Made by a program: the position numbers and the translations under genes. DNA of 64,000 bases from Lytechinus pictus. Its lineage: Eukaryota. Shown one piece after another: positions 7,278-62,508 of this stretch. Location of the stretch: contig NC_087251.1 in NCBI RefSeq assembly GCF_037042905.1, positions 22,632,001 to 22,696,000 on the forward strand, in the 5' to 3' direction. The notes beneath the pieces were generated by a model. It saw only the letters and a list, made by a program, of their open reading frames with translations, searched no databases and was not told the origin of the DNA. The first letter of the stretch is position 1, and every line of letters begins with the position of its first letter.

Positions 7278-7379
7278 CTGTTTCAGATCTTGCAAAACAT
7301 TTTCCTCCACTCCTTCGTCCAAGAATGCATCTCGAACGTTGTTAATCACATCATCGATTACACTTTTGTACAATTTGTG
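7278..7379 (-). CDS. GTF2A1: TFIIA alpha/beta precursor, exon 2 (HKLYKSVIDDVINNVRDAFLDEGVEENVLQDLKQ)
   Basis: Close match to the conserved TFIIA alpha helix region (KLYRSVIEDVINDVRDIFLDDGVDEQVL); ttttacAG acceptor and GTAAG donor; 102 nt, phase 0/0. Confidence 0.97.
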
Positions 7380-7743
7380 CTGTAAAATGCGAAAGAAGAG
7401 AATTTAGGGAAGGCTGAAAATATATATGATGAATAGATCTACATTATCAGGAAATTATTGAAAAAAAGACAAACCCCTGCAAACCATGATCATCGATTAC
7501 CAATTCATCCAATAATCTGTCGTTAATTTTGTTTATTATATTATTATCTGACGTCAAAATTTCGTCAAGAAGGATGCGTCCTCTGACTGAGTCTGACCTA
7601 TCTCCCTAAATATTTACTGAAATTTTTTATTTTAATCAAAATCAGACTCGGTTCATAGACAGTCATTTTCAAAAAAGACAATTTATTTAATTAAACACAT
7701 ATTTTTCCCCGTGAATTTTCTTATTAATCCCATAAAGGCTCAC

Positions 7744-7767
7744 CACAGTCTGAGAATTAGAAGCCAT
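7744..7767 (-). CDS. GTF2A1: TFIIA alpha/beta precursor, coding exon 1 (MASNSQTV)
   Basis: ATG at 7767 in AAAATGG context; 8 codons resembling the TFIIA-L N-terminus (vertebrate MANSANTNTV); GTGAG donor at 7743; phase 0 matches exon 2. Confidence 0.88.
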
Positions 7768-9764
7768 TTTCAAATTTCAAAAGAAAAGGTCCAGATCTGA
7801 TGAAATGAGAGTTGAAAAAAAGAGTACAGGTACGCTTCTCTCCTCACGTCTCGGCTCCACCGAAGCCACTGCAACTCTGTCGCTCGTGGCTTTTATACTC
7901 GTCAACAAGTTCTCTTTTTCACCTATAGGGGAGCGGCAAATTGAAGGAATTGTCATACCCCCTATTAAAACTCCTCGTTCAAAACTATTCAAGTTAATGA
8001 AAATATAATGTATCATTACATGTATAAAACAACAAAATTGGTTAATTGTAATTAGTTTTTATACATTTAGTAATAATATACAATCAAAAAGTCAATATTT
8101 TTTTTCATAATAGAGTTTTGTTTTCATAATTTGCTAATAGCCTTGTATGTAAAAATCGTCTGCTTCCGTTATCTAGTTTGTCGTCTGCTATATGACAATT
8201 GATGAAGAATACGAATTTGGAATAAATGCCTCAATGAATGACGAATATACCATTTTTAGCAGGTAGTTTTGATTTTTGAAAATATACAAATCATTCATCC
8301 GCAATGCAGTGAAATCCTTGGCAACACCTCGTTTCTAATTAATGTTCATGCAGGTGAATAAATAAATCTCTATCCCTTACAGGACAATGGTCTATCCTCA
8401 CAAAAAAAATGATTTGAAGAAGGATAAAATCAAACAAACAAGGTATTTGTACATCCTGGTCAGTATATAAATGAGGATTCTTGGAGATTTTTGTTTTTAT
8501 CTGACAGTAGCCATAGCAATATTGCTTCTCAGCCAATCAAAAATCAAGGTAAGTTGTCAGATCTGACAAGTTGTCGGATGAAAATGCTGATGAAACGCTC
8601 CCCTGATCGTGTAACCCGCTCACTATTTATTATTTTATGAAATATGAATGTTTTCATTTTCTCCTCATTATATTGTGAAACAAAGTTTGATTCCTCCCTG
8701 AAAATGTGGAATTAACGCTGATGTTCGATGTAGGGTTCCTTTATTGAAAAAATTTGCAAAATTTGAGATATCGTACAAAAAATACAATAGAAATAGTAAG
8801 TGAGTGAGACCATCGACTCTTTCACTTATGTGCATATGGTGAATTTAATTATTTCTGGAAAATAAACGAAGCCTTAAAATGTCATGGCTATCTTATTTCA
8901 CATCCGATTTCGATGAAGTTTCTACTTGTTTGATTTTTTTTATCTTCATTCAAATAAACTGTTGGGGGTGTACTTTCTTTTTAACATGAAAAAATGATTC
9001 CTCAAAACAGAAATTGAAACAAAGATTTTATTTACATTCAGTTAACCTTTACCGATTTGGTTGTTCAAAATCCACTTTTATTGCGCTTATCACATCGATG
9101 ATCGAGCCTTCTGATGCGCATATACAGATTAGTATAATGGTCAATATGGCTTGCCACTTTAATACAGTGTATATGCATATTCCCTAGCTAGGGGAGTATT
9201 CTATGATCAACGAGCAACTAGCCAATACATTGGCGTTCGCTTCCTTCCGGGAAACAAGGTGCATCTATGGTCACTTTACCACTACTGACCCGGTGGCAAT
9301 CGAACACAGAACCAAGGGCGCCGGAAGCGGGGGGGCAGGGGGGGGGCACTTGCCCCCCCCCCCAAATAAAATTTTTGGGGGGCAAAACGAGATTTTGCTC
9401 CCCCCCCCCCCCCATGTACCCCCCTAAAAGTAGAAAATGATAAATAATTTAAGGACAAAAGTAAACGATGAAGGCACTTTTCTGCCTAAAAATTGTAATT
9501 TCCATTGTCAAAAATGAATGACGGGGCTATTACATATCATAGTAAGCCTCGCGTCTTTTGACGATGTCCCTCTGCATGTGAAACATACCTTTGATAAACC
9601 CCTTTTCTATCTTATTACAGTGTGATAACGTTTAACCTTTTAATGAATACATTTCAGACTAAAACCGAATGGCAAATTGAAAGTGGTTCACCAATGCATG
9701 CTGGCTGTGTCGGCTAACAAACGCGCGGTCGCCCAAACGCTCAGACCGGACCCGATATCACTAA

Positions 9765-12297: not shown

Positions 12298-12490
12298 GAG
12301 GCGCGATAGCTCAGTCGGTAGAGCGGGGGTTTCGGATTCCGGTGACCCGGGTTCGATTCCCAAATGGTGCGCTAGTGCCCTTTGGTAAGGCATTTATCCT
12401 CATTTCCAGGTCCCTCGGAGAGGACCTTAAGCCGTTGGTCCCCTGGTTGCTTGCTCACAGGCATTCGTGCTTTCTTAGCAGTCAGGTATA
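12298..12490 (+). mobile_element. tRNA-derived SINE
   Basis: Pol III A box TAGCTCAGTCGG and B box GGTTCGATTCCC followed by a non-tRNA body (...GGAGAGGACCTTAAGCCGTTGGTCCC...); no acceptor-stem closure. Confidence 0.8.
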
Positions 12491-13176: not shown

Positions 13177-13219
13177 ATGATGCATAAATCTACTGCAAAC
13201 AAAATTTTGACTGGCATCT
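13177..13219 (+). CDS. Dmrt: DM-domain transcription factor, predicted coding exon 1 (MMHKSTANKILTGI)
   Basis: ATG downstream of a CpG-rich promoter-like block; strong GTAAGT donor at 13220; phase 1 matches the phase-1 acceptor of the DM exon, which has no in-frame ATG before the DM domain. Confidence 0.7.
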
Positions 13220-13956
13220 GTAAGTTAATCTAACTTAGGCCTTGCTTAGAACCTATGGCATGCCTATGGCTAGTCTACAATAAATTCAACGCCGTCGCTA
13301 GGGCCTAGTTAGATCTAACGACACGTTAGATTTAAAACAGTTGATAAGTAACGTTAGACTTAGTATCATCTAGTAGTAGTACTAGTACTAGGTCTAACTT
13401 AGGCCTAACGACCGTTTGGTGTATAAACAGTAACAGTAAGTTAAATTATACTCTAGATCTAACAGTTAGTTAGATCTAGCCCTATCTAGACCATGGTAGA
13501 CGGTCTAACTTCTAATGTTAGATACGGTAGACCGTAGAGTCTACTCTCTAAGTTCTAACGTTAATAGTAAAATACTCAGTTAGATCTAGGACCCAGAGAG
13601 CTCCCGCCCGCTCCCGCCCGCTGCGCGGGCGGGAGCTCTCTGGGTTAAGTTAGATCTAACTTAGCCTCAGCAAAGTTGCATAGAGTCTACGGTATGCTAA
13701 GTCCCTATAGCGATCGAAGCGAGCAAGAAAAAAATATCACCTTTTCATGATAGTCCAACTTTGAGATTGATTTTGACATGGTATCTATAGTATACTGACC
13801 ATACTATAGACTAGTGATAGTCATTATCTTACATACCGTAGGCCTATTCCTTTCTTTTCATTTCCTTTCCTGATATCTTTTCGTTTTTGTTCTCGGTTGT
13901 AATTTTTTAGAATCTTTTGGGGGCCAGTGCTAACGTTTTGCGGATCGGGTCCGGGG

Positions 13957-15718
13957 CAATGGCGGCACCAGGATTTTTATTAACCTAGGGCCTAGCTAGG
14001 GGGAGGCAAAATAACATTGGGGGGGGGGGGCGACACACAGATATTTTGCCGATTTCACAAAATCGAGCGAGAAGCGCGAGCCAATTAATTTTTTTCAATG
14101 TATAGACTATAGTCACGTATTGTATTTGTATTACCGGACACTATTATGATTCCGGACGCGCATATTACCGGTAGGCCCCCTATTGCGTTCTAAAACAAAT
14201 TCGTACCGTAAGACTTCCGCAATTCAATTTCTCAGAGCAATACATAGAACAAGATTGCAAAAAAAAGGCGAAAAATCCAACTTTAACCTAATTATCTCTA
14301 AAAATGACAGAAAATCCTTAAGTTATCATATAACATAGTTCTGTATTAACAATTGATATATTTTCTAACGGAAATATGGGCCTGATTTGCCGAATTTCAA
14401 TCTCGTCCACTCTTCGATCGAATGATGAGGTGTGGTGTATTGTGGGTGTGATCGTCGACGGCTAGTTGACCCCCGGCGCGGCCCCGTGCGCGAGGTTTAT
14501 CGTGAGTAGAGCCGTCGATCGGCAGCGCATCGATAGAACTTGAAGAGCGTCACGTTACGAACGCGAGCATATTATTATTGGAAAGTGCCATGGAATATGC
14601 AGCTAACAAGACAAAATAAAATAAGTTATCAAACACGAATTTATTACCAACATCTGCTCAGATTCGATATAAAAAAAGCAAATAATACTTAGAATTTACT
14701 CATGATATGATATAAGAAGAAAAAAATAACAAAAATTTGTTCTTACATCATTATAATCAAGGATATCTTTACCCGTCCGGCGCGCGTCCGGAATCATGAT
14801 GTAATTTGACGCGCACGAAAATGATTGTTTTTCGTGGAGGGGTATGCGGCAAGTACGATGCAAAGAAAATGGTTGGTAAATATAAAATAATTTTATCATA
14901 TTCATAATTTTTATAATATTTGGAATAGCAAGTGTGAATTTTTCTTGATTGTATTTCCTCTAGTTGTCACGTTTAAAGCACTGAAATAAAGGTGTCCGGC
15001 AATAGGATACACTGCCATACTAGTACTACCGTACCGGTACTATGTAGACCCTACTGACTTGAATTTGAAAAGGTAGGCTACCTGTTAGACTAGTTGTTTG
15101 CATATGATTGGGTCATGAAGATGATATCTCAGTTCTCACCAAATGAATAATAATGTGAGCGCGAAGCGCGAGCTGAAATTCTTTGATATCCTGAGTCTGA
15201 GATGAGTAACTGGACGTTTTAAGCACTTTTTGTTATGAACTGGATGGCTATCTGATTAAACAATTAATGCGAGCTGAAAATTTTTATTTATGAAAATTAT
15301 GTAGATAGGGGGGTCCTACGCAGGATATGTATCTCGCTAAAACGAATAATGGAAATTCTAATCGCAAGAAGCATATTGACTTGAACATTGCCATTGGATT
15401 TTGAAGCCCCATGTGAACAGATAATTTACCTATAGACTCAGTCAACAGTTATTGCGAGCGCGAGAGAAATTTTGAATTGTATGTACCGTAATGACCTGAA
15501 AGATTTATGTTAGTGACAAAAAATGTTGGGAGCTAAAACGGTGAATGAATGAGAAAATTTGCAAAATTTAAAGAACGATAAAGCTGTTTTGAAGCACTTT
15601 GCAGCTTTATTAGGATGCTGCATTAACTATACATTTTTCCAAATTTCGGGGGGGGGGGGGAGCAAGTCCCTGGGGGAAAATGCCCCCCCCCCCCCTGTGC
15701 CTCTTGGTGCCGCCACTG
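13957..15718. mobile_element. Non-autonomous hAT-like element in Dmrt intron 1
   Basis: TIRs CAATGGCGGCACCA and TGGTGCCGCCACTG; 8-bp TSD GTCCGGGG/GTCTGGGG; subterminal G/C runs. Confidence 0.8.
14118..15015. mobile_element. TIR element nested in the 13957-15718 element
   Basis: Imperfect TIRs GTATTGTATTTGTATTACCGGACAC and GTGTCCGGCAATAGGATACACTGC. Confidence 0.6.
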
Positions 15719-17459
15719 GTCTGGGGCGGAGCCCCCGGAACGTCGTGATATTTTAAACATTGCAGATGGCCACTTTTTTAAATCAAATCGCGGGTACATG
15801 CATACACAACAGTAACATAATAACTTAAATGCAGTTGCAGATAATAAACGGAATATTTTGAGTCAGCACAACATAGCAAATGTGGAAAAAAATTGCCAGC
15901 GAGCAAAGCGAGCCAGAAAAATATGGCCTTTTAAAGTGATTTCGAAATTAAATTCTAATTTTGTGATAGTAGCTTTGGAAATTAAGCCAAAGTAAATATT
16001 AAGAGGCTTTTTACGGTAAATCTAGCCAGCGTAAAGCTTTACTGTTATAGGTTAGGACATATTATGGGGAGATATAAATATATAACTAGCCCTTGGCTAA
16101 CCCTTTGCTTTTTTTTGTCCTGATTGCGACCATTATTGCATAAAATTTAGCAAGCTTACAATATAGACGCCATCCACCTTTCTCCCCGTTCTTTATATTT
16201 TTCAATCCCGGCAGCCCGATCGTGTTTTAAGTTCTTTTTCTTGTCCCTTTTCTTCATATTCTGATTTTCCAATTTAGCTTTTGGCTTTTCCTTCATTTCC
16301 CGTTTCTTTTTTACTCTTCCTAACATTTCCCGCCATTCTTGCCCGTGCCATTGATTCATATCTTTTAATCGTATATCCCTCTCTTGCTAATTATGCTAAT
16401 GTATTAGTATTTCAGGATATTTTGTACTTCCTCACATGTTCTTCTTTTCTTTTCCCTTTCTTTTCATTCTCTGTCTCCTTTTTCTCTTTCCCCGGTTTTT
16501 TTTATTTTCCCGTTTAAATCCGCCAAGGGGGGGGGGGGCAGCTTGCCCCCCCCCCCTGTTACGCCACTGCTAGAATCAAGTCTAACTTATATTTTAGACT
16601 TAGTCTAACGTTAGATCCTAGACCCCTTGGCCAAGATCTAGATCTAGTCTTGCTTTCCCTAACGTTGATCTAACGTGCGTTAGGCCTAAAAAGTTAGAGC
16701 TGTTCGTTAACGCCAAACGGTTTAACACGTTAGGCTCTAGATCTAGGACTACGTCGGTGTTATTGTTTAACCCAGGGTTGAAGTTGGTCATTCGATTAGT
16801 GTGTGGAATTCAGAGCGGAACAATAGACCAGTTCGTAGTTACTTCATGGACAATTTTGGTCAAATTACCTTTCATTATGATAGGCAGATTTCAAAGCAAG
16901 ATATTACGTAAGCTTGCCTCACATAGCAGGATGAAGAAATTGAATAGACCAGGTGACTAGAATAGCACACCAATTAACACTTTATAAAGGTATTTGTTGC
17001 ATTCCTACTTTGAATGCATATCATAGCATGTTGCACAATATACCAGTCGTTCATGGACCGGACGCGTTGTTGTTTTTTGTGGATGTAAATGAAAACCACA
17101 ATTCAAAAGAATATATGAATAATCAAGACATCAAAGTTGGTGCTAATCTCATTAGATTTTAAACCACCATGTCTCTTTAGTACAAATGACCTTCCTCTGA
17201 TCATGCGTAGAATCTTTTGATCATGCGTAGAAAGGAACTACGAACTGGCTTATTGCACTGAAGCAAATGTCATGGAACCTAAATTAGATCTAAAAGTTAG
17301 ATCTAGAGTCTACATATTATACTATTTTCGTAGATATAGGCTAAAGCTAACTTTTTCTACTACATCAAATTCTATTAACTAGATCTAGATCTAGAGTCTA
17401 GATAGATCTAGATCTAATACAGGCAATTGCGGTCATCTTTATTAGTGCAAATCGATAGC

Positions 17460-17640
17460 CGGGAGCCTATTGGTCTATAAATAATTCCCAGGTAAGTCTT
17501 TATCTCCCTTTTTGAAAACTGGTATAACTCTAGCGACTTTTTATTTATCTGGAAAATGCCTGAAGTAAATGAAAAATTGAATATTTGAGAAAGAGGTTCG
17601 AAAATATGATCCCTATTATCATATATCAACAGTCGAACTG
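17460..17640 (-). mobile_element. LINE (CR1/L2/Jockey group) reverse-transcriptase remnant
   Basis: Across frameshifts reads IFEPLSQIFNFSFTSGIF / PDK*KVARVIPVFKKGDKDLPGNY / RPI, the conserved N-terminal RT motif of non-LTR elements. Confidence 0.85.
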
Positions 17641-18889
17641 ATAAATCAGCATAGACTCCTTACTACTTGTTTTAGATTGATCAAGATTGTATTTTCTTTA
17701 ATTTCTGAACTTGTTATTGGCAGGAAGAAAAATGCTTGACTAATGTAATGTATGGATCCATAACATTTGACTCTTCAAGATGCTATCTGGTTTATATAAA
17801 TTAGCCCAAATATGATACATCCTGAATGAAAATTTTCAGCTATGATAATTCAGTCTTGTGTAAGGACAAATTAGGCATTCATTTGTAATTAAGTCCTGAG
17901 TGAATATATAAGCTGCAACTATATTCCCCCTCTTGTAATATTTCAACATCGTAATTCAAGATAGTGGCATTGAAAAACTGATTTATATATTTAACATTCC
18001 AAACTTCTGATAATGCGATTATATAAAAAGAATGATTCAAACACATCTTCATATAAATCGTTCAGTATTTCAAAATTACGATTCGAAGATCTCACATAAA
18101 GTTACGTGTGGAATAGGTAGATCTAGATCTAACGACACGTTAGATGGTAACTGAAACTAAAATAAAAAGGCTTCAGTTTCTCTAGACTACATGTAGATCA
18201 TGGGTGTCGATCTGCTTGCGCTTTGCATTATTACGTAACACCCCCCCCCCCCCCCGATGAAAAGAACTTTATGCGGATCGACACCATTGATGTAGATCTA
18301 GGCCTAGATCTAGACCTACAACTAGTTGTTCCGCCAGAGTCTGCAAATAAAAAGGGAGAAGGTAAGAAGAAAAAAAAGGAGACAGGAAAGAAGGTGATCA
18401 AGGAACTTTAGAAAAAAAGGAAAGACAAAGGAAAGATGAAAATTAGGGGAAATCCCTTTCCTGTCTTGTTTCTTTTCCTTTCACCTCGCTCTTTTTTTAT
18501 TGATTTGAACTCTGGTCTAAAGTATTCCTTTCACTATGGAAAGCCAACTGTGACAGGTGTCTCCAATATGTTTCAGATGATTTGACACTCAAATCATTCA
18601 TAATTGACTCGAAATAATTACTGAGATAAATCTTCATCATTAAAATATGAGGAAAGAGCCAAGCACGCATGAACTAAACCTGGATGTTGGTAGGGTGGCT
18701 GAGTCAAAAGTGGGGATCGGGAGAAGGAGCTGAACATGCATACAATCACAATTTGATTGTTATTTCATGTTTTTGTTCGTGGTTTCGGGGGGGGGGGGGG
18801 TACCATCTAGCAGGCACTTGGCATATTTATAGAATGGATAATGGTAATGTTATGCAAGGCACATTGGCATGTTTTGAAGAGTTTATTTT

Positions 18890-19297
18890 CAGTCGGTCTT
18901 ATGCCAATTCGTCAATTACCAACTCGTCTACTATCATTTGGCATCAGTTCGTCCACTATCCACATGGTCTAACTGCCATTTCGTCCAATCACCATCTCGT
19001 CTAATAACCAGTTGTCCAATAGCCATTTAGTCCATATACCGTTTGATCTAACTGGACAAAGTGTTAATCGGGTGAAATGACTGAAAATTAAATTAAATGG
19101 ATATTATACCAACTGGTTATCAGACCAAACGGTCATAGACGAACTGGCGATTACTTAATGAAGTGATGAATGGACCAATTGGCGATCGGACCGAATGGTT
19201 GTGGGTTGAAATGTTGATTGATGGAATGGCATTATGTTAAATGAAGGTAGACCATGTGATGTGTGGACTAGTCGGCGAATTGGCAATTTACCGATTG
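18890..19297. mobile_element. Inverted-repeat element with short internal repeats
   Basis: Left arm CAGTCGG..TGCCAATTCGTC with CCAA/GTCCA repeats; right arm GGACCA/GACGAA repeats ending GGCGAATTGGCAATTTACCGATTG. Confidence 0.6.
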
Positions 19298-19472
19298 GAA
19301 GACCAGCTAATAAAGTTGAAGTTGCTACCAAGGGTGACTAAATGTTAAGATTAATACATGTATCTTTTTTTTGTATTTATATGTAGATTAATACATGTAT
19401 CTGTTAAACGGACATAAGAGTGATAGGACCATCTACAATTTTCTCACTTTTACTTTCTGCTTTCCCTCTTAG

Positions 19473-19865
19473 ATGGCGCAGATGTGAATGGTCGGGAAGA
19501 TGAGTCACAAAGATGTCTCCCCCTTAAGAAAAGGCATCCAACCTGCGCTCGATGCCGAAACCACGGACTCATCGTGGACCTCAAAGGCCACAAGCATTTA
19601 TGCGAATACCGTGACTGCCTCTGCACTCGATGTAACCTAGTGATTCAACGGCGGGTAGTGATGGCGAAGCAGGTAGCCCTAAGTCGAGAGCAGTTGAAGC
19701 AACAGAGACAAGACCACAGTTTATCTCAACAGCTACAGGTCAGTCAAGGTTCCTCACAGGGTATACCATCGTCTCCAACAGTTATTGATCTCATTTCTGA
19801 AAGTACAAGGTCAGAGGAGAGGGCGAATTCTGTCGTTCAACTTTCACCGGATTCGACAAATATCG
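19473..19865 (+). CDS. Dmrt: DM-domain transcription factor, exon 2 (complete DM DNA-binding domain)
   Basis: [13 protein letters not shown]4[38 protein letters not shown] is the doublesex/mab-3 intertwined CCHC/HCCC zinc motif plus recognition helix; polypyrimidine tract and AG at 19471-19472; GTATGT donor at 19866. Confidence 0.95.
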
Positions 19866-20252
19866 GTATGTATCTTGCGAGGAATGAAACATTATTCATG
19901 ATTCTTATTTTAACATTTACATTGAACTAAATCAGAATATACATCAGGCCTTTTCATCTCAACTAAAATAAATGTAAGCTTTGTGTATTAAGACATTTTC
20001 CTATTGATTCTCATAATCCATGTCAGCTCATCGCGCCCGACGGTGGAGTCCAAATACTCCCTAAATTTTTGCCATAAAAAATTGTTCGCACGCAATTTTT
20101 TTTGCTCTAAGTTGTGATTCTTTGGTTTAAAAAAACATTCAGAATAATTGGAATTTAATAAACTTCAAATATATGCAAACTTTTACTAAGATCGAGCAAA
20201 AAAGCATTACCATTTTTTCGATTGAAACTCGCTTTTTTAATTTCTTCGACAG

Positions 20253-22327
20253 AATACAATAGTCCATATTCTTCTTGGGACTCGCCTCCGATGAATTTGT
20301 CACAGCCGACACAAATGACGTTGACTCCTCAGAAAGCATCAAGCCAAGCTTCGCGGTCATCTCCCACATCTTTCCAAGCAGTTCAGGAAAGCGAAACATA
20401 TAGACCACGAATGGTCTTCTTGACAAGCCCTTCGAATAGATCGTTAATACCACACCCCGTGGTACCTTACCCAGCTAGTGCCCCGAGAATTGTCTATAAC
20501 AGCGACAATATCCCCGGAGCTTCGGCCTTTATCAACTATGCGTCGTCTCAAGGCAATTTTGACCACGCGCTAGAGTACTCTCCTACGTCATATCACACGC
20601 CTCAATTAAATGAAATGTATCGACCCCAGCCTTTAGTCGGTGCCAACCAAATGGCAAGACCATTCGTACCAAGTCCCACCATACCGATGGCATCTGACGA
20701 ATCTATCAACCAACATATTGGATATATTCCCAGTCAAACGGCAACCTATTCCGCCAACCTTTCGTCAGCTCATGGTGTTACAGGACAAACGTCAGAGTAT
20801 CCCGCCAACCATTTGTTAGCTCATGGTGTTACAGGAAAAACGGCAGCCTCATCCGCCAACCATTTGTTAGCTCAGGGTGTTACAGGACAAACGTCAGAGT
20901 ATTCCGCCAACCATTTGTTAGCTCATGGTAATACAGGACAAACGGCAGCCTATTCCGCCAACCATTTGTTAGCTCATGGTGTTACGGGACAAGCGTCAGA
21001 GTATTCCGCCGACCATTTGTTAGCTCATGGTGTTACAGGACAAACGACAGCCTATTCCGCCAACCATTTGTTAGCTCATAGTGCTACAGGACAAGCGTCA
21101 GGGTATTCTGCCAACCATTTGTTAGCTCACGGTGTTGCAGGACAAGCGTCAGAGTATTCCGCCAACAATTCGTCAGCTCACGGTGTTGCAAGAGAAATAT
21201 CAGAGTTACATCCAAGATCAACATTCCATTCATCACTGGTGGATGAGACGTACCGGTGCCAAGTATCGATAACTTCAAATTATCCAACTGGACCAGTTTT
21301 CCATTGTCCCATGGTGCCACATCAACCATTTGACGCAGTCTCTGCATATCGCGATAGTTACATGTTGGCAAACTCACAGGTGGCTTCTAGCTCCGCCATG
21401 CATATTGATTCAATGTCGGAGACCCAACCGCCTTCAGAGGAAGCAACAGACCTGTCTAATATCCCGTACTGTCAAGTTAAAGAGCATGCGGACCTGCTGC
21501 ATCAGATACCGCTGTCAAGTTCGTTAAGGGTTTCATCATTCGTAAACCAATCAGCACAAAACTTCATGCCGGCCCAAGAATATTACAGCAATCCAGATAG
21601 ATATACTTCATGCTCTTTGCCAGCAGATTCGGCAACAGCAGCGTATTTATTTCAAACAGGAGATAAAGCTATGTTATCTTCTGAAAATGACATCTCATTC
21701 CAGGGTGTCGACCTTACTAGACGGCCCCAAATCGATACAACACCACTGCAACCAGAAAAAATCCATCTGAATCACGCTGACGGCTTTTCTTCTAGGTCAG
21801 TACCATTAACTACGACACAGCAAGAAATCGCAGTTAATATTTCAAAAGAACCAACCTACAAATCTCGTCGACCTTTTCCTCTTAGGATCACCATCCCGTC
21901 CCTGAATCTATCAGATAGATTCACCGACAGTCCGTCTCCAAGTCCCATGGACCCATCGCCAACTTTCACACCATCAAACTTAAGCATTCTCACTAACACC
22001 TCTCTGCCGACAAGTGATATTCCATCTCCTGGATTCTTTACTGCGTCTCTCCCTTCCTTCAACTACCCATCTCCTACATTGCCCACTCAGAGCTCTCCCG
22101 TCTTTAGTTACCCATCTCCTTACACCAATCCCTCTAAGCATGCAGGATTGCCGTCTTTCCAAAGTCTGACGGACTCGATTTTACCTGTGACGCAAAGCAG
22201 CCGGTTGCCTTCAAATTTCGCGGAGCAGGTTCGGATCCCGCCGAAATATGACGAAGACTTTGACAACGACCATGATCACGAGAGTGACGAAATTGACGTT
22301 TGTTCTTTGAACCCTTATGCCCGGTGA
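20253..22327 (+). CDS. Dmrt: DM-domain transcription factor, terminal exon 3 (about 690 aa, S/P/T-rich, internal 17-aa repeats)
   Basis: tttcttcgacAG acceptor in phase 1 joins exon 2 in frame to a 2.07-kb open frame ending TGA at 22327; AATAAA at about 22638. Confidence 0.88.
20747..21205 (+). repeat. Coding minisatellite, 9 x 51 bp (YSANHLLAHGVTGQTSE)
   Basis: Nine consecutive units starting tattccgccaacc, no frameshifting indels, inside Dmrt exon 3. Confidence 0.95.
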
Positions 22328-24224
22328 AAAGGTATAATTTTTAAAGGCTTTTATATCCATTTGTCTGCTTGTCAACCAATGAATTTGTCGAATTTGTAAG
22401 ATATTTGTATCTTCACATAACTGAGAAAGAGTAAGCTGAAACTGTACATAGAATAAGAAGCAGATTCTTCGCGCTTGAAGACTTATATTATGCTTTTGCT
22501 TGCCAACCAATGAATTTGACGAATTTTATTTACATAACTGACACATGTATAAATAATGTAAAAGGGATATAAAAGAATCATTTGAATTTGTCATGCTAAA
22601 ATCAGCATTTTATCGCCGGCATGTAAAATCAACCTTAAATAAAAAAAAAAATGTTTTTTGTATTTTGAAAGTCGAAAATGGGCTTATGGCCAAATTCAAA
22701 TCCGTGATACAAAAATCTACAATTTAAAGTTCAAAATTAAACTCTAATGTTGTTTTCAAAATACATCTTTTTGTCAGGATTGTAAGAAGTGCTTTCGAAT
22801 TTGGTGAAGTTTTTACCATACCACAAATAATTACAACAGTTTCCGTGCCAAATATTGTATGTAAATTATTACAAAAAAACTTGTATGTAATAATTTAATG
22901 AGTTTATTCCGGGGTTGTCATTTTTTTCGAGCAATCTGCTTATAATGACAATCCTTCTCCTGCAAACTGTAAATGTTAAATTTTCTTTGTTGGTATAATA
23001 GATCATATTTGTTTAGAATGACTTTTTTATTTTGTATTTTTTTTCTTTATGATTCATACCAAAATCAATTACCGATATATTATGTTTGTTACGAAATGAA
23101 AGTTATATTGTATACGAATGTTATATACATGAATGCAGAAGAAAAAAAAAATCAAATCAAATAATAATCGGTAACCTTTGTGGTCTTTTCGACCCCTGTA
23201 ACTGAAGGCCTACCCAGCTCCCGTTGATCTTATCATAACCCAGTGTTTTTAATAATATTCTTCAATATTTACCACCTCGATATTTCGTGTATAAATTAAT
23301 TTTCTTTAAGGCATATTGACCGTATCTATTAGTCAATACAATAATTAGAATTGTCTGTGTGATATCTTAAATACAGTAAAAAACAAATTAAGCATTCCCA
23401 ATAATGTTCCTTTCTATTTTTAATTCAGCATTTGCTATTGAGTTGAAAAGTTGAATCATAGTGTTCATATCCTTTATAAGTCCAAGCTGTCGATTCGGGA
23501 TATAACAGCAAAAACATTACTGACAGAATTCTTACGTGAAAATTCTTAAGAGAAACGGGAATATTCAATTCACAAGTTCTTTATTCGTCCATAGCTACAC
23601 TGAAATTCGGCGTGGTCACCCATATGATATTCATATAATAAAACATGCTTATACAAAACACAATTTTTACAAAGGCGCTGCTCAGTTATTTACACTTTTA
23701 GAATTGACTGCGTTGATATAAAACTATATAAATGTTGAAAGGAATGCGATATTTAAATTTGAATTAATAATAAATTCAATCCTATGACGATTAATAATCC
23801 CAAAATTGTTGCATTGATAAATATAAAAACAATTTTATTAATAAGGAGGAAATTTGACGTAAAATGCCAATGATATTTATTCGTTGCACTGTTTGCAATT
23901 TACACTATTATTTTAAAGAAATCGGAAGAAAAAAAAGTGGGGGAGAACATGTATTGTGATGGCAATTTATAAATTCAAATCATAATTATAATTGTAATAT
24001 AATCCATGTACATATTGCTGATGCATTAATAAATACGGAAACAAATCAGTGAAAACAAAGTGGATAAAGGTGAGTATTCCAATGATGCACTATAATGATA
24101 AGAGGAAGATGGGGGATATGTTATGTAATGCCAAATCGAACCATTTTCTTTCTTCTTAAAAAATAAAGATAGGAGGGTTGTGTGATAGCGGGTGTAAAAC
24201 AGGACCACGCCCAATTGACGTTCA

Positions 24225-24720
24225 ATTTTTTTTTATTTTTTTTTTTATTGGGCACTCAAAAGTGATTCACAAATTACAAATAAATGATTATACAAGTTAA
24301 ATGACAAAAACAAACTTTAGACAATGCCACGTAATCATATCATGTTTCGCAGCAATAAGATATTCAGATTTATGCTTCACCTTAATGAAGGAAAGAAGGA
24401 AATGAAAGTTAGGCTTTTCTTTACTAAACTTACATCGATAAATATAAAAACAAGTACAGAGAAGGAAGAAATTTCTACACAAATAATTGTGATGGTCTTT
24501 GCTATATCCAAACATTCTTTGGAAAAAATATTGATAATTACACTCTGCCCTGTTTAAGTTTCGAGCTCTCAAGTACTTTTCTAAACATTTCCAGAGAGGG
24601 GTAACGATTGCACACTCAACCATGAAAGTGTTGACATTTGATCTCAAACGTTTCCGATTTGGTTTTGAGACCGAATAGAAAACGGGACGTATGAGTCCGA
24701 ATATCGACTTGTCTGACACT
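24225..24720 (-). mobile_element. L1/Tx1-type LINE 3' end remnant
   Basis: FMVECAIVTPLWK...FYIYRCKFSKEKPNF...EYLIAAKH...H resembles the Tx1/L1 ORF2 C-terminus; A-rich tail (T-run on + strand) at about 24225-24250. Confidence 0.72.
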
Positions 24721-26689
24721 TTATTCGATTAATTTAAATAGTTTTTCTCGATGATAAAACTGAAATTACATACATTTAAGCAGGAAATTATCATTTAAAA
24801 GTACAACATTGATGTTTGAATATATGAAAAGACGTGCTTCTCGGATTTTTTAAATAATTATTTTCAATAACCATGATGCCTCCATTAAGGTGCAAAGTCA
24901 GACTATTTCAATAGTCGGTGCAATATGAAATTAAGGCGGTATTATTTTTTTCTTTATTTAATAATACTTTCACGGCTGAATCCCCCTTTTCGAAATTCTT
25001 TTCCCCTACTCCTGGAAGGCACTATTGTAGTATATACCATGGCAATCTATTGTAAATAATGTGATTCTTGATGATTTATGATAAAAACGTTAATATAAAA
25101 AAATTATATTGTAATGAAAAGTAAAATACAGAAATTGCATATAATGAGACAAACACCTTATTAGAATAATATAAACAACTTTCCACTACAAAAGATATGT
25201 TGAAGAAAAAAATATTTGTTCCATATTGATTTCTTATTATATACTTTGCCGTAATCATGTAAATAATCTTGATCATTTTCCCAATTATACTGTTTACTGA
25301 ACTTCTTTTCTTACAGGAATCATTTCAACAAGTTTTTTTAATGCTTTCCATGATTGCACTTGATAATGCTTTGATTGATTGTACATAATTATGACATGTT
25401 AAAATGAAAATAGGAGGGGATTCAGGACGAAATGATATATCGATTATTGTTCTGTTAAACACATGACAATGAGTCAATAAGTTCAATGTTGCTTACAAAA
25501 CATTTTGTGTCATTTTCTTTCTTTCTTTCTGCTCGTGATATCACAATACGTATTCTCTAAATTGGTTTGTTTTATGAAAATGTGTATTTTCAAGGTCTTC
25601 GTCAAGAAGAATAATTTTGATCTTGACTTATGTTTTTATCACTCTATTATCTTTTATAATTCGTTTTGTGGAGATTTTGGCAGGTTTTTCCCCGATGAAC
25701 GTCCTGTGTTCCCAATATAATTAATTTATTATGTGCTTTATACAGTAGCGGATTCGGGATTTTTAAAATAGAGGGGGTGCACATAACAATATTGAAAATG
25801 GAGGGGTGCAGATTCTTGGATTTATCTATGTTAACAAGTATGTTCAATTGGCAATTGGCTTGGATCCGAAATTACTAGAATTTTAAAGTCGTTGGTACCA
25901 AATTAGGTATGAAAATATATCGGGGCAAATCGATATTCAACTTATTAATCTGTTGATTTATCATGGTAAGGGTTCACAATAATTTAGTTGTTTAAGTTTA
26001 GTGGTTGTTAGAACAGTTTTTGTTTCTTTTTTTTATCCATGTTTTGATCTTCGACTCTGTTCAATATTACATTGTGTGTTGTCTGAATTTATTTTATGAT
26101 GGAATGTGAACATTTTGAAGATAAGGTGAATCTTAACTTTCTCGATATGTCTCCTGCTTTCATTTTCCGCATCTCCGTAATGTTGTCTTTCTTCAAATAT
26201 CCTTTCTGTATGTAAGTCATCGTTTCGTTATTTTAGATGATATTTCAACATCAACAAAATTAAAGAATGTCATTATGGGATGGGGGGTCAAAGGTGACTT
26301 AAATGAAACTGCACGGCCCTTCGTTCCTTTATCTCTGTGTCAATCAAGTTACATTACTCGTGATATTTCAGATTATGATTGTATAATGCATTCAGTGAAG
26401 AAATTTGAAAATGAAGTTCATGATTTTGAAATTTCATATCGCTTCTTTATCACTTTGTTGTTGTTTATATGATGAAATGGGAAGACGCAGATGTTTTCAA
26501 AATAAATGGTAATTGTGCTTGACAAATAATTTCATCTTGATGTTTCACTTTGGATACTAATTGTGTGCTGCCATCTCTTGACTATGAATAGAGAAGGATA
26601 TTTTATCCCTCACCGTACCGTAGTCTGTGTACTGTGGGCACTTCAATCAGCGATTGGGTCTTAAAAATAAAAAAATCATCAATGTTTTT

Positions 26690-26935
26690 ATGGCCTAGCT
26701 GCAGAATATCTCACTGATCTATCGACGCTCTTCAAGCTCTCTCTCAGACCACTTTGTTCTTCAACAACCTTGCAGCTGACCCTAGGACCCCGAAAATAAA
26801 TACCAGTTATGGTGAACGAATCTATTCTGTTTTTGCCCCAAATCCAATGGATAAATTACCAACATACATTCACAATGCCAACCCCCCCCCCGATCAATTT
26901 AAAACCCTCTTAAAGGCCCATCTTTTTTTAAATAT
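26690..26935 (+). mobile_element. L2/CR1-group LINE 3' remnant
   Basis: TSYGERIYSVFAP..DKLPTYIHNA...FKTLLKAHLF matches the YGxRxFSxxAPxLWNxLP...FKxxLKTHLF ORF2 C-terminus. Confidence 0.75.
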
Positions 26936-27154
26936 CTAGATATTTCCACTGTTTTTCAGTTGTGGGTTGGTCTGTACAGAGGTGCAAATCTTTGTTCACT
27001 TTTGTTTCTGTTTCTTTCTAATCTGAGATTTGGTAATTTACTTTTGTTAATTAAAAGACAGAAAATTAAGCGCTTAAAACATCTGTATTAAGGGCCTTAC
27101 CATTTTCATAATAATCATTATTGTTATTAAGAAGATACAGGTGCTTTGGCAAAG

Positions 27155-27699
27155 TGGGTAAAGTTACAGGTCTAGTCCATCCCAGAAATTGTTGATTTGA
27201 ATCCATCAAAATCGGTAGTAAAAGAAAAGTTATGACATTTTTAAGTTTCACTATTTTCCACAAAACAGTTATATGCACAACTAAGTGATATGCAAATGAG
27301 TCGATGATGTCCCTCATTCTTTCGTTTTTATTTTTGAATTATACAAATTTCATTATTTACAAATTTGACAGTAAGGACCAATTTGACTTAACCATAAACT
27401 GTTAAAATAATGGTAATTCTACATGTTCAGGGAGGAATGAAATTTTGTTTCACTTGACAATAAGGAGAAAATTAGAATGTTTTATATTTCATAAAATAAA
27501 ATACAAAAAAATAGTGAGTGGGTGACGTCATCAGTCTGCTCATTTGCATAACGACCAGGATGTGCATATAATTGTTGGGTGAAATAAAGCAAAATTCTAA
27601 AATGTCATGACTATCCGATTTTGATGAAATTTTCAGTGTTTTGCTTGTTGGATTTTTCTCTTTTTATCAATTTTTTTTTGTGGTGGACTTGTCCTTTAA
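27155..27699. mobile_element. TTAA-flanked MITE family copy (Kolobok/piggyBac-like)
   Basis: Same family as 35867-36447; ends GGTGGACTTGTCCTTTAA; a partial copy lies at about 8600-8985. Confidence 0.7.
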
Positions 27700-30600
27700 G
27701 AACACAATTCCATTCTGCAGTGAATTTTGCATAGGAAACCAGTTTTGCGACTATTGAAAACTGATGGTTTTGCATTTATTGTATGCTTACTCATGCATGA
27801 CTAGATCGACCAATCTTGTTTTTGGACAAGTTAGTTGATAGTAGGAAAATTCCTGCCAAATCAATCTAAAAAATAACTCATCCAAAAATTTAAAAGAGGT
27901 AGTTGGTTTGTTTTAGGTGTTAACATGGAAAATACATAAAATCATTGTCACCCCCATCTCCCAAATAAAATAAATGAAAAATAAGTTTGAACTGGTATCA
28001 TAAGACACTCCAAAATTCCTTCATTTTTTTTAAAGAGGGGGGGGGGGGGTAGAAGTGCTCAAAATCATTGATACATTTGCCATTATTAATTTACATATCT
28101 GCTATAATATAATACAATAATCTACCTACCCATAACTCCAATGATTCTTTCTTTGGCAATGTTATTAATATTTTGAGCACTTCTATTTGCAAAGCTCTTA
28201 ATTTCATTCTAAACTGTTTAATGATAAATTATGTTTACCACTGAAAAGGGAAAATGAATGAGGGTTTATAATTAGATACATTTTGATTTAATAGCAATAT
28301 AATTTAATCACATAACTGTGTAGGATATCTGGAATAGATTTATATATGGAAATGATGAGTTCCCCAGCACCAAAAATAGTATACATATTTCAAAGCAATT
28401 ATATATTCCACATCATTTCACTAACTACTTCTAACTTGTACTAAAAAGTGCAAAATAGAAATTATTTCAATGAATACAATAAAATAGACACAGATATGAA
28501 ATTTGGGAACTCTCTGAGTGCACGCGATCTAGAAGTACTGAGTGGAAAATGATCCTCACTCTTTATTTCTAAGGCAAATATTGCTTTATAAACAATATTA
28601 CAAAAATAATTCTGAGCGAAGCTTCATTCATCTCTAAAGAGGCATGAAAATACCTTTAATTCTCATTTTCAATTCATCTGTAGAAAAGTCACGATATATA
28701 TTTACTCTAAAGCTGCTGAAATAATGTACTAATGAGTCAATAATACTGTACATATATTATACTAGAATATCAATTATCAATCTTTGCACTCGCCACTTAA
28801 TGATGTACTAAGTTTAGAGCTGCATAAAGTACCATTATGATTGTGAATTCAATGAAATCAAGAAATTACCATCATCATGCAATTGCTGTTTAAGACATTT
28901 TTTTGTAGCAAAACTATTATTTGTCTGATATACATTTCTTGAAGTTAGTTTCTCTCTTGATAAATGTTTCACACAGATATACTATAGCTCTCTTAGGAAA
29001 TGAAAATAAGTCTGAGTAAGGCATCTAGCATTAATTCACTATAAAATACTAGTATAGCATTTTGGCCACTTGAATTAACATTATTTTGTAAGATATTGAG
29101 TCAAAAATGCATACTTTTTAAACTCACTCCTCCACCTCTTTTCATAAAAGGTTTCAAAGGCACAAACAGCACAAGAAAGCCTTCATTAACCATTGTCATA
29201 CAATTGTAATATGATCACGATGCATCATCTCAATATTCATCATGCATTGTCGGCTGATAAAAAGTAATATGCAAACAATACATAGTTCTAAATTTCCAAT
29301 ACCTATTTTATGTCCGAAACTGTTGGCTAAACTGAACAAAAGGCACTTTCAACCAATTGGCAAACAATAAAATACATTTTTCCTTGATCCTTCACAGCTA
29401 AACAAATAATGCTTTAATAACGCCGTATCAAGAACAAGAAATAACATACTGGAGATACACTATATATATTTTGTATACAAATAGACAGCAAAATCCATTA
29501 GAATGACATCATCTTGACATTCAATCATCCACTCTGGAAATTAAAGGTCTATTCATTAACACATATCGATGTCCCTTTTTTTTATTTCAAATATCTGGCA
29601 CTATATTTAATTGGTATTTGTAATAGCAATATTCATTACTGCTTTTATTGATAGTCTTGCATGTTCTGTTGTACTGCTCGATGTGTAATACAACAGATTA
29701 GAAACAATATCATTCATAGATAAACCAAATAAACTTCATTCTGTATAGAATGACCTTTGACCTCTACCTCTGACCTTTCACCAGTGTTTCACTACAGGAT
29801 GCAAAGGGATTTGTATGAGATGCACAGTGTTTAATACAAATTATATCCATCACAATCCTCATTCATTATATCTACAATGAAAAATGGTATATTCAAATTT
29901 AAAAGAAATAAGAAACATGTAACAGCACCATATACAAGAATATTCAGAAGCCGAAAGGCATACTAAAAATAAAAGACCATGTCACTTTATAATTGTGCTA
30001 TGATATGCAAGCAATATGATTTAGGTAGTAATTTTTACATTGAAGTAGTATTTAGCGCTTCGTATCCTCTGGAAAAAGCGCTATATAAATCCAATTATTA
30101 TTATTATATTATTTATTATATGAACTCATCTAGTCCAATCCTACTTAAAAAATTTCTACATATACATGTATCTTTGCCATTAAAGTTTAATTTTTGCAAG
30201 AATAATGTAATGTATGACAGTTTCAGACACAAGCATGCCGCTACCATTAATGCAATCAAGCAAAAATCCCTTGAAATGGAATGAAAGGCAATAACTTTAA
30301 TATACTTTCTTTCAAATGATAAATTCAATTAATTTGACTTTCTTTTTTCTTCACCCTCACATAGCCCCTTCCCCCATGAATTTCCCCACCCCCTCCTTTC
30401 CCTTTGTCTCCTTCATCTCTTACCATCATCATAATTAGAGTTGTACTGTGTATAATGGCATTAACACCAATCGCTTCTACAAAATACTCGAGCAACCAGC
30501 TGCTTTTAAAAAAGAGAACAATTTCAATCAACCATTATCAAATATATCTTGACCATATAAAGATATATTACAAACCACAGTGCATTTCATGCAAACTATG

Positions 30601-31317
30601 AAACAAACTAACAAACAAATACATGTAAACGGCTATAACCACAATCATTAAAACAAACAAAGCATTAAAATTATACAATTGTAAACCTTCAAATATAGAT
30701 TATTATTAGTACTTAAGATGTATAATTCGATGAGTCAGTAATTCAGCATAAATATCTTCATTATTAAAGATCAGGCTATACAAGGCAATGTCAGTAATAA
30801 GGATATCTGTACAGATAAAGAAATTAAATGTTAATCTACATGTATGTACAATTCATGTAAAACAAAATAATTATAACAGTTTCATAATTATATGTTCCAA
30901 TTTCAATGTGTGTACAGTGTATGAGTATTTGGAAAGGTCACGTATACACATTTGAAAAAGATCAATAGGCCTAATGTAATACTTTTAAGTCCAGTAAGTC
31001 ACATTCTACATGTATCTGGCCTTGCTTTATTGAGAAATTAATAAGATGCAATTTGCATATCACAATCCCAGTGATTGCCAAGAAGATATTTCATATCCTG
31101 TAGCTATGTAAATCCAATCTTTATATCATTTCATTTCTTCTTTTTTTCTTCAATCATTTGCAGAAGAGTGAATTTAGTTTTCCTCATATAGAGAACCATT
31201 CAAATTAATCTTAGAATCCTTTCAAAAATGAGTAGACAGCTCAGAATGAACTTGTGCCCTGTGTCATTACAAATTATTATCAATATTCAGGGTTTCATTT
31301 CATTAAGCTACTCATAA

Positions 31318-31478
31318 TGCCATGGTCACATTTGTTCTACGGCGGCCGTACGGCGAGTCGAAAACAGCCGTTTTAACATTTTTTGTCCAACTACATATAG
31401 GTGGTTTGAATCAAAATTGATAAAACGGCTGTTTTCGACTCGCCGTACGGCCGCCGTAGAACAAATGTGACCACGGTA
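31318..31478. mobile_element. Palindromic PIF/Harbinger-like MITE
   Basis: About 55-bp TIRs (GGTCACATTTGTTCTACGGCGGCCGTACGGCGAGTCGAAAACAGCCGTTTT); TAA on both sides; second copy at 34781-34943. Confidence 0.88.
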
Positions 31479-31942
31479 TAAGTAACCTGTGTATACAATT
31501 TTATGCATGACTTGTGACCATTTTCCTATGCTAATTTTCCATTTTCCTGTGCTAATGCCGAGCGCTGGAAAGGCTGCTTGAGCCACAGCCGGGGTAATAA
31601 TATCCAAGTCCTTTGGAAGCGCATAGAGACGTTATTCATAATGTGTGATGCGCTATACAAGAACTGATTATTATATTATTAATTTAGATACCCCCAATTT
31701 TTTCCTGTTTGAAATAATGGGAGTGAATTTTCTCTAGTTCTAATCAAATTTGGACAAATAGGAAACTGCATTATTGGAATGCTCGTTAATGAAGAGAATT
31801 TTTAATCTGAAAAGATCAGATTTCAAGATAAATGATTGAGAATTTGATCTAAATAGCATAACATTGGCCACCAGTCATGCACAACTAACAGCTTTTATGA
31901 AATACAACCTTGATTTACAAATTTTAATAGGCAGTTACAAGG

Positions 31943-32117
31943 TGGGTGTTTCATAAAGCTGCTTGCAACTTAAGAGCAACTTTAAGAATGACTGGTGATC
32001 CTTTCTATTTCCTGGTAAATGGTATTTTCATTGGCGATGGTTTAGCGTGTAAGAAAGGTTCACCAGTCATTCTTAAAGTCGCTCTTACCTTACGAACAGC
32101 TTTATGAAACGACCCCT
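31943..32117. mobile_element. Short MITE
   Basis: TIRs GGGTGTTTCATAAAGCTG and CAGCTTTATGAAACGACCC; related-ended elements at about 33943-34080 and 40452-40576. Confidence 0.7.
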
Positions 32118-32932
32118 GGATTCTTTAACATATTGCAATGGAATGATCAACTGGAATTCTTTCCTTCTAAAAAAATATAAATATGTCATTGAGCATGCTA
32201 GAACCTGAATCCATGGGTGGTATTCTTGAAATTAAATCTGGGTTTAACTTGTACATGTAACTATACAAGAATTTGAGTCTACACATTTATGGAATGCTGG
32301 ATTTCACATTCATGTCAAAGAAAATGTACCAAATAATTCATTAGATTCACTGGATGCTCGTACAATTCTTCACATTTGATTCACGACACCATTAATTTTT
32401 TTTCAACAGCTTTTTGCCACAGAATTAAAATAATATATACTAGGCGAATGATTTTGCAATTAACACTCCATAAAAGGGTGAAGTAAATCAACCATCAACG
32501 CTATGAGACTACCACCCAATGTAGTTACTTCCAATATGCATTCTGGTTAATCTAAAAACCTGCATGACTTCATGGCAAATTACTAGGGAGTGGAGAAGAG
32601 GTCATGGAATGTTGGCAACAGTGTTGTCCTCAGAGCTGCAAGAAATCCACCACCAGGCACAGTTCTGCAGAATATCATGGGAAGTGTTTCATGATACGAC
32701 TTGTTTGATGTTTTATCTAGCAAAGTCTTTTATATCTGATAATTTCTGTAGTCATAGCTAGACCCATGTGCTTCTCAGCCAGAAGATATGTGAAACCCTC
32801 TCCTGATGTACTTTTCTTCAGCCGAAACCTCATACTTCTCGGTGACCATGCAGAATATCTTCCTGTCACTCTGAGAGCACTTACCAAGGAAGAGACACCA
32901 GTCCTGGACAGGTTGTAAAAAGACTACAGACC

Positions 32933-33213
32933 TCACTGCTGCAAACATCGGCCCGGCGCATCATCATCATCGACAGGAGAATGCCTGATGTAGTTGTCTG
33001 TGATCTGCACCTGATACTCATACCTTGCCATGTAGCGTATCCTCTTCTCTGGAGATTTCTCACTGGAGACGGCCAAGGATCGTACAGTGGTCTTGGAGGC
33101 CGTGGTGTGAGGGGTGTGGTACTCCACCTCTACGTTGCGGGAGAAGCTCTTGCTGACCTCTTTAATAGAACTCAGGTTCAGGTGGCACTTGAATATGTGG
33201 GTAGATGGATGAC
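32933..33213 (-). CDS. STON2: Stonin, terminal coding exon 5 (GHPSTHIFKCHL...ASKTTVRSLAV...YEYQVQI...CLQQ*)
   Basis: End of the mu-homology domain; tttttctgtaatAG acceptor in phase 1; TGA at 32935-32933. Confidence 0.93.
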
Positions 33214-34780
33214 CTATTACAGAAAAAGGGATACAGAGATAGGTGTATTATTCAATTTAAAGAGTGATATTGAGAATAATTCATGCATTCAATAACCTGA
33301 TCAAAAAACCTGAGAGACATAAAACATTTGCCATGAGCACTCATCTGTAGTGCCAGAAATTTCATTGTCATTATCACAAGTCATTAAAGTACTAAATCAA
33401 TGGGAAGTTCTATCTGTGTGTAGTTTCAATACGAGAGATTGCAAAAGATTAATAGCAAATCACTGCCTACTTGAATTAAATTCAACTTGCCCCATATATC
33501 ACAAGTGGAATACAAAACATAATATAGCAGAATTAAATCACAAAGAAGTAATTCCAATAGCATCATATTATGGTCTTTCGGAGTGTCTACATGTCCTTTT
33601 TGCCGAATGAATCTGAACAGGATAGACTTACTTTCAGTATCTTCTAAAAATAAATCATCCCTTATAACTTCATGTGTTAAAGTTTCAATATCAGTGAACT
33701 AACACTTATCAGACTACAAATATATAGTTTACATTGCTATTATTATCCAAGGAGGCTTCAACTAAACCATTACAGTAATTAGTTTGATTAACTCTCTTCT
33801 AAGATCTTCTTGATCACTGTTCATTACATGATTTATCAAACTTGGAGAGTCTTAGTGATCTTGATGCTCATGTGATTAGATAGCCATCGCCAAGGACTGA
33901 GTGAAAGCTAATCAAATTCATGACTCTCACATCAGTATCACGGGAGCATTTCATGAAACAAACAATCAGTTATTTTCACACTGAATACTGTTATAAGCTA
34001 CTAGAATCCTTGCATCTGATTGGCTGAAAGGAAACTCATCAGTGGAAATCACTGCCTAAACTCTTCATGAAATGCTCTCACATTTTTACTGGGAAACATA
34101 ATAAGCCATCAGGGAATCCATCCTCCACACCCATCAAATGCTGGAAATCTTCTAGATTTCCTGTATCCCAGAGGTATATTGCTTAAATAGTTTCTTCTGC
34201 TTCTGTTTAAATCTCCAATGAGCCTATGCAGCCTAGTACGAATATGTAACAACAGATTACGAGATTGCAGAGATGTTGATTACCGTTATAGAGAGCATAC
34301 ATGTACATGTACCATGATCTAACCTCTAAACTGATGAGTGCAATGTATCATGTATCATCAACATGAAAAATACATTACACATAGGGTTGCAAAGGGCTGG
34401 AAATTTTCCGGAAATTTTGGAAAATTTCCATGGAAAGTTTAGGGAATTTTCATTTTTTCCCAAAAAGTTATAAATTCTATTTTTAAATACAAAATTATAA
34501 ATTGATATCCTCAAATATTATACTTTCCATTTGTATTTAAACTATTCTTCATTCTTTAAATTGCCCAGGGTATAAAATATTCATCAAACTGTACATAAAT
34601 ACATTATAGTATATACATACATGTATCCATTAACATGATGGAGCATTATGTACATGTACAAAATGAAGCTTTTCAAGTCAACATAAAAAAATAAAACTTT
34701 GCATTACACTATTTTTCATTTTTCTTAAAATGTCAAAGGTTTTTTATGTGAGAACCTGCCATTGTATAATAACATGTTAA

Positions 34781-40603: not shown

Positions 40604-40711
40604 CTGAGGATTTCTCTGGCAGTCTGTCTATCCTCCACATCACCGCTCTGTAGGCATGTTCATACTTTGCTGTTCCTACAGAGATCTCCAGTAGCTTTGG
40701 ATGAAGACAAC
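40604..40711 (-). CDS. STON2: Stonin, exon 4 (GCLHPKLLEISVGTAKYEHAYRAVMWRIDRLPEKSS)
   Basis: GTAKYEHA-x4-WRI-x-RLP is a stonin mu-homology motif; absent from the ORF track; ttccAG acceptor, GTAAAT donor; 108 nt, phase 1/1. Confidence 0.95.
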
Positions 40712-47793: not shown

Positions 47794-47952
47794 CTCTCTT
47801 AATAATATCTGCCCTCTTGATGACTGCATGGATTGAGGATTGTCCAACCCTCTTTGGTTTCCTGAAATACGAGATCCAATGCTCTGGGATGGGAATGTGG
47901 ACAAGGATGTTTTCACACAGGAAATGGTTGGGGTTTCTCTTTCCAGAGCAGG
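47794..47952 (-). CDS. STON2: Stonin, exon 3 (ACSGKRNPNHFLCENILVHIPIPEHWISYFRK...IKR)
   Basis: Matches the stonin CENVxIRxPVPxEWVKxFR segment; cccAG acceptor, GTAAA donor; 159 nt, phase 1/1. Confidence 0.9.
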
Positions 47953-62252: not shown

Positions 62253-62508
62253 CTGTATGTTGAGTTATCACAGGCCGCTGGGTCTCCTCCGGGCGATGAC
62301 CCGTAGTCGTGGGAGTACCTCGGCGCGGTGATTCTTCAAACTTCACCCAACTTCTGCTGGAACCTGCGCCCACCTCTCCAGGACCAGGCTCAACAACCAT
62401 AACGCCAGAGTCTTCTCTTGATTTACCTGCCAAGGGTAGGACTGGTCCTTTCCCAACAACATCCCTATCTTCGTCATCTCCATCGTCAAATGACACCCAG
62501 TCAGACAT
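62253..62508 (-). CDS. STON2: Stonin, coding exon 1 (MSDWVSFDD...SWVKFEE...)
   Basis: AAAATG start; two WVxF-acidic AP-2 appendage-binding motifs characteristic of stonin N-termini; GTACG donor at 62252; phase 1. Probably a single invertebrate co-ortholog of STON1/STON2. Confidence 0.88.

Follow-up and report, generated by a model that had tools for sequence, protein, structure and literature searches.

A CAG/GT in stonin of the sea urchin Lytechinus pictus, at the position of the vertebrate stonin-TFIIA fusion junction, is very probably an unoccupied proto-splice site

Human stonin 1 (735 amino acids) and SALF (1182 amino acids) have residues 1-711 in common, according to PMC2174325. As in the human SALF locus (STON1-GTF2A1L, NM_172311), a stonin gene precedes a TFIIA alpha/beta gene of like orientation in Lytechinus pictus, within the 64,000 nucleotides of contig NC_087251.1 analysed here (the window). 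An earlier note on this DNA pointed to a CAG/GT in the last stonin exon (slashes denote actual or hypothetical junctions) and considered an analogous fusion possible. Is this site a latent splice donor or ordinary coding sequence? We conclude that it is very probably the unoccupied proto-splice site of required stonin codons. The site is probably not used as a donor in the urchin, and a stonin-TFIIA fusion is very improbable there.

The following elements of the stonin gene were identified:
62253..62508, minus strand: probable first coding exon (MSDWVSFDD...), resembling the N-terminus of L. variegatus P0013
49872..52205, minus strand: large coding exon 2, in which the mu-homology domain (PF00928) starts
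47794..47952, minus strand: coding exon 3
40604..40711, minus strand: penultimate exon with a constitutive phase-1 donor
32933..33213, minus strand: last coding exon with a phase-1 acceptor, encoding the end of the mu-homology domain and a 25-residue tail that ends in CLQQ and the stop codon
33005..33013, minus strand: CAG/GTGCAG, Gln-Val-Gln codons of stonin, the unoccupied position homologous to the phase-0 intron of vertebrates and to the SALF junction
28329..32932, minus strand: 3' UTR, traced by contig pieces over about 4.6 kb

Since both a mu-homology domain and stonin homologues were found, the gene is assigned to the stonin/stoned B family (PF00928), and its tail and CxxQ end are as in vertebrate stonins. 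The PF00928 match (E 4e-07, under the curated cut-off) ends at VQI, three residues beyond the site; a search of the PDB gave only weak matches to AP-1 mu1 (E 0.15-0.48). The L. pictus stonin-2-like protein XP_063958293.1 matches at 100% over the searched region. This RefSeq model begins at 52338, within intron-like sequence (intron 1 of our five-exon model), and may be truncated at its N-terminus; exon 62508-62253 (minus strand) supplies the MSxWVSFD start that is conserved in other urchins. Candidate poly(A) signals near the end of the UTR are AATAAA at 28567 and ATTAAA at 28308 and 28292.

Read directly on the minus strand, the last stonin exon contains TAT GAG TAT CAG/GTG CAG ATC. The cut falls after 33011, the G of CAG, and in phase 0, as the earlier note had described; in the five-exon model, which has no internal stop, this is codon 1020/1021. 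The elements on the far side of the hypothetical splice, and the gene in between, are:
7744..7897, minus strand: TATA-like box (TATAAAA at 7897) and exon 1 of GTF2A1 (coding 7767-7744, MASNSQTV) with a phase-0 donor
7278..7381, minus strand: GTF2A1 exon 2 and its phase-0 acceptor (AG at 7381-7380), encoding the TFIIA N-terminal helix
13177..22327, plus strand: Dmrt, three-exon model of 836 amino acids (13177-13219, tentative; 19473-19865, DM domain; 20253-22327)

The GTF2A1 gene matches L. pictus TFIIA subunit 1, and its exon 2 begins at 7379 with HKLYKSVIDD; the phase-0 acceptor that had been claimed for it agrees with exon 1, which ends in phase 0 too. When 33011 is joined to 7379, GTF2A1 exons 2-6 stay open with no stop in 208 codons, and the proposed in-frame joining is borne out as a potential. 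The donor and acceptor are 25,631 nt apart, and 37 AATAAA and 28 ATTAAA lie between the stonin stop and the acceptor. A DM-domain gene is indeed present on the plus strand inside this gap, antisense as predicted. Two further donors were tried as in-frame routes to GTF2A1 exon 2 and rejected: the constitutive donor 40604 is out of frame and meets a stop after 8 codons, and donor 33024 (AAG/GTATGA, phase 2) meets one after 6.

Stonin fusions are found in three of 154 TFIIA proteins (the best 150 of 1966 matches and four others), all three being gene predictions from jawed vertebrates: XP_043911260.1 (Protopterus, a lungfish), XP_078086779.1 (Mustelus, a shark) and CAG09467.1 (Tetraodon, a pufferfish). 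Their junctions, YHCQ/PKLY, YHYQ/PRLY and YHCQ/AKFY, align residue for residue with urchin YEYQ/. These three predictions, together with human stonin 1 and SALF, place the homologous SALF junction exactly at this site; the earlier note had located it only approximately. The tail beyond the junction has 24 residues in human stonin 1 as against 25 in the urchin; like SALF, an urchin fusion would join at this residue in phase 0 and drop the 24-25 residue tail together with TFIIA exon 1. Should the three predictions prove real, SALF would go back as far as the jawed vertebrates do. They are the SALF-type stonin-1/TFIIA proteins P0169, P0191 and P0196 (lungfish, shark, pufferfish); P0115 is a 468-residue cluster representative with, by eye, a TFIIA gamma-like N-terminal stretch followed by TFIIA alpha/beta. 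No fused invertebrate protein was found among the 154 TFIIA proteins, which come from prediction databases; a weak search for longer forms of TFIIA gave five matches from nine candidates, none of them fused. No report of an invertebrate SALF was found in a partial library.

What distinguishes vertebrates from the urchin is an intron. A profile of the last stonin exon retrieved 38 short ORFs among 67 candidates, 35 of them resembling vertebrate STON1 or STON2. Thirty of these 35 break into unconserved sequence directly after Q/V or K/V; in two of the thirty (P0226 and P0253) the VEVEKK tail is re-entered after 28 and 38 residues, the inserted stretch ending in pyrimidine-rich-looking LYFQ. Several of the diverging ORFs lie on contigs of 16-35 kb. 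The remaining five continue into the tail and presumably represent spliced RNA or gene models. These reading frames bear the mark of a phase-0 intron that STON1 and STON2, the two vertebrate paralogues, both carry at the site. The urchin DNA has no intron there, and the exon is continuous. P0034, from a sea star, and P0248, an urchin-like ORF, likewise continue through the site; the contig of P0034 has 13 kb, equal in length to another with a large exon left unspliced, and that of P0248 has 21 kb. Intronlessness is shown directly by the window DNA only; the five continuous vertebrate ORFs show that ORFs can be spliced RNA. An intron-like N-terminus was discarded as proof of a genomic ORF, some vertebrate ORFs having one and yet being spliced downstream, and the size of the contig was used as a sign of genomic origin instead.

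A proto-splice site has the consensus MAG/G, and the urchin CAG/GT stands at the exact place of the STON1- and STON2-type vertebrate intron. Urchin stonin lacks this last intron of vertebrate stonins, and the difference reflects either a vertebrate gain or an echinoderm loss. Because the vertebrate donor at the junction is an ordinary constitutive one, SALF requires only the choice of a farther acceptor. In the urchin, unlike in vertebrates, there is neither a constitutive donor at the junction nor a separate, skippable exon for the tail; the exon is continuous, and a fusion would therefore depend on a cryptic donor within the terminal exon. Also unlike SALF, the two urchin genes are kept apart by a 4.6-kb UTR and an entire Dmrt gene in antisense orientation. 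Thus the possibility of an analogous fusion, as proposed, stands as to position, phases and the Dmrt gene in between, but there is no intron donor, and no support for use of the site was found. At the SALF junction, then, vertebrates have an intron and echinoderms leave the position unoccupied.

The codons themselves offer the simplest account of the CAG/GT. Of 52 stonins fetched, many of them isoforms or from close species, 35 bear the tail, and all 35 have Val at the site and a CxxQ end. The preceding residue is Gln in 28 (urchins and cartilaginous fishes), Phe in 6 (sea stars) and Glu in 1 (Saccoglossus, a hemichordate). As the residue before Val varies while Val stays, the GT is retained even at sites that have lost the AG; the sea star site (TTY/GT) cannot be AG/GT because Phe precedes Val, and +5 is fixed as A because the next codon is Gln or Glu. 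At the protein level, the proposed check of the GT context in relatives therefore has a divided outcome: the GT is kept as Val in 35 of 35, but the AG is lost in sea stars. For other species this context is deduced from protein, since a metagenome scan for relatives' DNA at the site gave 471 pattern matches and no confirmed one. Val is probably part of the last mu-homology strand, as suggested by the Pfam match that ends at VQI. The caveat that the GT may simply reflect a Val codon has become the best explanation, with Val invariant at the end of the mu-homology domain. Phase-0 NAG followed by Val occurs at 7 of the 80 Val codons of the stonin coding sequence, three of the 7 being in the last exon; the AG/GT Val site at 33011 is not beyond chance expectation.

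As a donor, the site lacks both +3A and +5G, a double lack shared by none of 12 modelled donors. Its duplex energy with the end sequence of U1 is -7.3 (real donors, -5.7 to -11.0), and its donor-matrix score is 2.7 (real donors, left out one at a time, -1.6 to 6.5); both donor scores are crude, the matrix comprising only the 12 modelled local donors. With this small matrix, 33011 ranks third among the 15 GT of the last exon, and its score is equalled or exceeded by 48 of the 1297 GT that lie from 33210 down to 7400. The description of a weak donor (GTGCAG) is accurate for the poor positions +3 to +6, but CAG/GT is good and the site is mid-range on both scores. It is a plausible weak donor and not an outstanding one.

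The tail that a fusion would drop also deserves attention. Urchin stonin ends in CLQQ (32936-32947, minus strand); a CxxQ end is found from urchins to sharks and is lost in SALF-type fusions. Human STON1 (CITQ) is reported to be farnesylated in one study (PMC7902609), and another describes labelling of STON2 (CGVQ) with an isoprenoid probe (10.1101/2024.03.03.583211). By its sequence, urchin CLQQ appears to be a prenylation-type motif matching those of the prenylated mammalian STON1 and STON2. Prenylation of the mammalian proteins would be a reason to keep the tail. SALF-type predictions go back to sharks, and the fusion swaps the prenylation-type tail of stonin for TFIIA.

RNA observations cover 13310-33299, to which 4 of 21 listed runs were aligned; the acceptor at 7379 is outside this stretch. 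Three were total-RNA runs, of which about 6% each was used. Their depth in the last-exon bin was 0.83, 1.4 and 2.75, all in minus-strand RNA orientation, corresponding to about 0.6-2 expected junction-informative reads per run at a listing threshold of 3. Among the rows listed, which are filled with repeats, no joint or loose end was found at 33011, and the control acceptor 33213 was absent there too; beyond these rows there were 109 further joints and 1530 further loose ends. Raw reads at this depth neither support nor exclude a rare splice from 33011. The fourth data set (X4) contains a contig of 4081 nt (contig 8; RNA origin guessed) that enters at 33215 and runs unbroken through 33011 to 32090; its 2951 letters located elsewhere fit the 2857 nt of the upstream stonin coding exons plus a leader. 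Further X4 pieces, at depth 7-13, reach 28329, and the bins 25983-26649, 24649-25315 and 21314-22647 are empty. This pattern agrees with normally processed stonin RNA whose 3' end lies near 28.3 kb, although assembled contigs drop rare isoforms.

We therefore favour the empty proto-splice site. On this reading the CAG/GT is Gln followed by the conserved Val, ordinary coding sequence at the end of the mu-homology domain and the empty counterpart of the phase-0 intron of both vertebrate stonins. Urchin stonin mRNA would be read straight through, keeping the tail with its CxxQ end, and would be polyadenylated near 28.3 kb; GTF2A1 would be made from its own TATA promoter. SALF would depend on the vertebrate intron and would not occur at a meaningful level in the urchin. 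The urchin site behaves as does the exon-exon junction in vertebrate stonin mRNA after splicing.

Leaky read-through between neighbours on the same strand is common. It is conceivable, if highly improbable, that occasional read-through is spliced from 33011 or from the stronger donor 40604 to downstream acceptors as functionless noise. Past the presumed 3' end of stonin, at 23982-25315, a few reads of minus-strand type (depth 0.06-0.45, about 1-2 pairs per run) would agree with this, as would the general commonness of such read-through. These reads could be leaky read-through or repeats, though; no joint was found among the rows listed, and the early stop on splicing from 40604 to GTF2A1 exon 2 also speaks against it.

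The least probable alternative is a regulated SALF-like transcript, in some tissue such as gonad or neurons, reading past the stonin poly(A) sites and Dmrt and spliced from 33011 to GTF2A1 exon 2; its product would be a stonin-TFIIA protein without the prenylation-type tail. The open frame, the position at the vertebrate junction, the mid-range donor scores and the kept gene order favour it, as do the shark, lungfish and pufferfish predictions, which may point to an early origin of the fusion among vertebrates. Against it, the urchin site has no intron, each of the four constitutive donors of stonin is in phase 1, and the AG/GT context is lost in sea stars. No fused member occurs among 32 listed echinoderm and hemichordate stonin cluster members or 14 echinoderm GTF2A1 members, and from 19313 to 22647 either strand has a raw depth of 0-0.03 (at low power). 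A tissue-restricted fusion from a cryptic last-exon donor, with a 25.6-kb intron holding an antisense Dsx-like Dmrt, is very unlikely. If it were true, SALF would predate vertebrates and the vertebrate intron, which could account for the lasting adjacency of stonin and GTF2A1 throughout the deuterostomes, and Dmrt transcription in gonads could be disturbed by read-through. If junction reads existed, SALF would count as a conjoined gene of deuterostomes in general, a sex-related regulator nested within it, and the urchin would offer a tractable model of the fusion.

The neighbourhood of the site has features of its own. The long Dmrt gene between stonin and GTF2A1 is divergent from GTF2A1, about 5 kb apart, and is probably of the Dsx-like class. 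Its last exon has nine copies of a 51-nt (17-residue) coding repeat at 20747-21206 (plus strand), which may explain length differences among urchin Dmrt orthologues. RefSeq numbers of stonin and GTF2A1 are consecutive in L. variegatus (XP_041468920/921) and Diadema antillarum (XP_071485827/828), and sea stars have the two genes on contigs of equal size. Two S. purpuratus Dmrt proteins of 708 amino acids, XP_030854341.1 and XP_030839690.1, are given in PMC10175285. By accession order, the former adjoins stonin XP_030854340.1, and the latter falls between stonin XP_030839683.1 and GTF2A1 XP_030839701.1. This indirectly suggests that the order stonin-Dmrt-GTF2A1 is common to urchins; a partial library yielded no literature on it. 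STON1 beside GTF2A1L is described as a conserved vertebrate block in PMC12360902. High-copy repeats at 31350-31680, 31960-32116, 27226-27680 and 16790-17262, three of the four within the stonin 3' UTR or immediately past its end, take up most RNA reads on both strands. ARAGORN predicts a tRNA-Arg(TCG) at 12301-12372 (plus strand), the downstream flank of which gives the impression of a tRNA-derived SINE.
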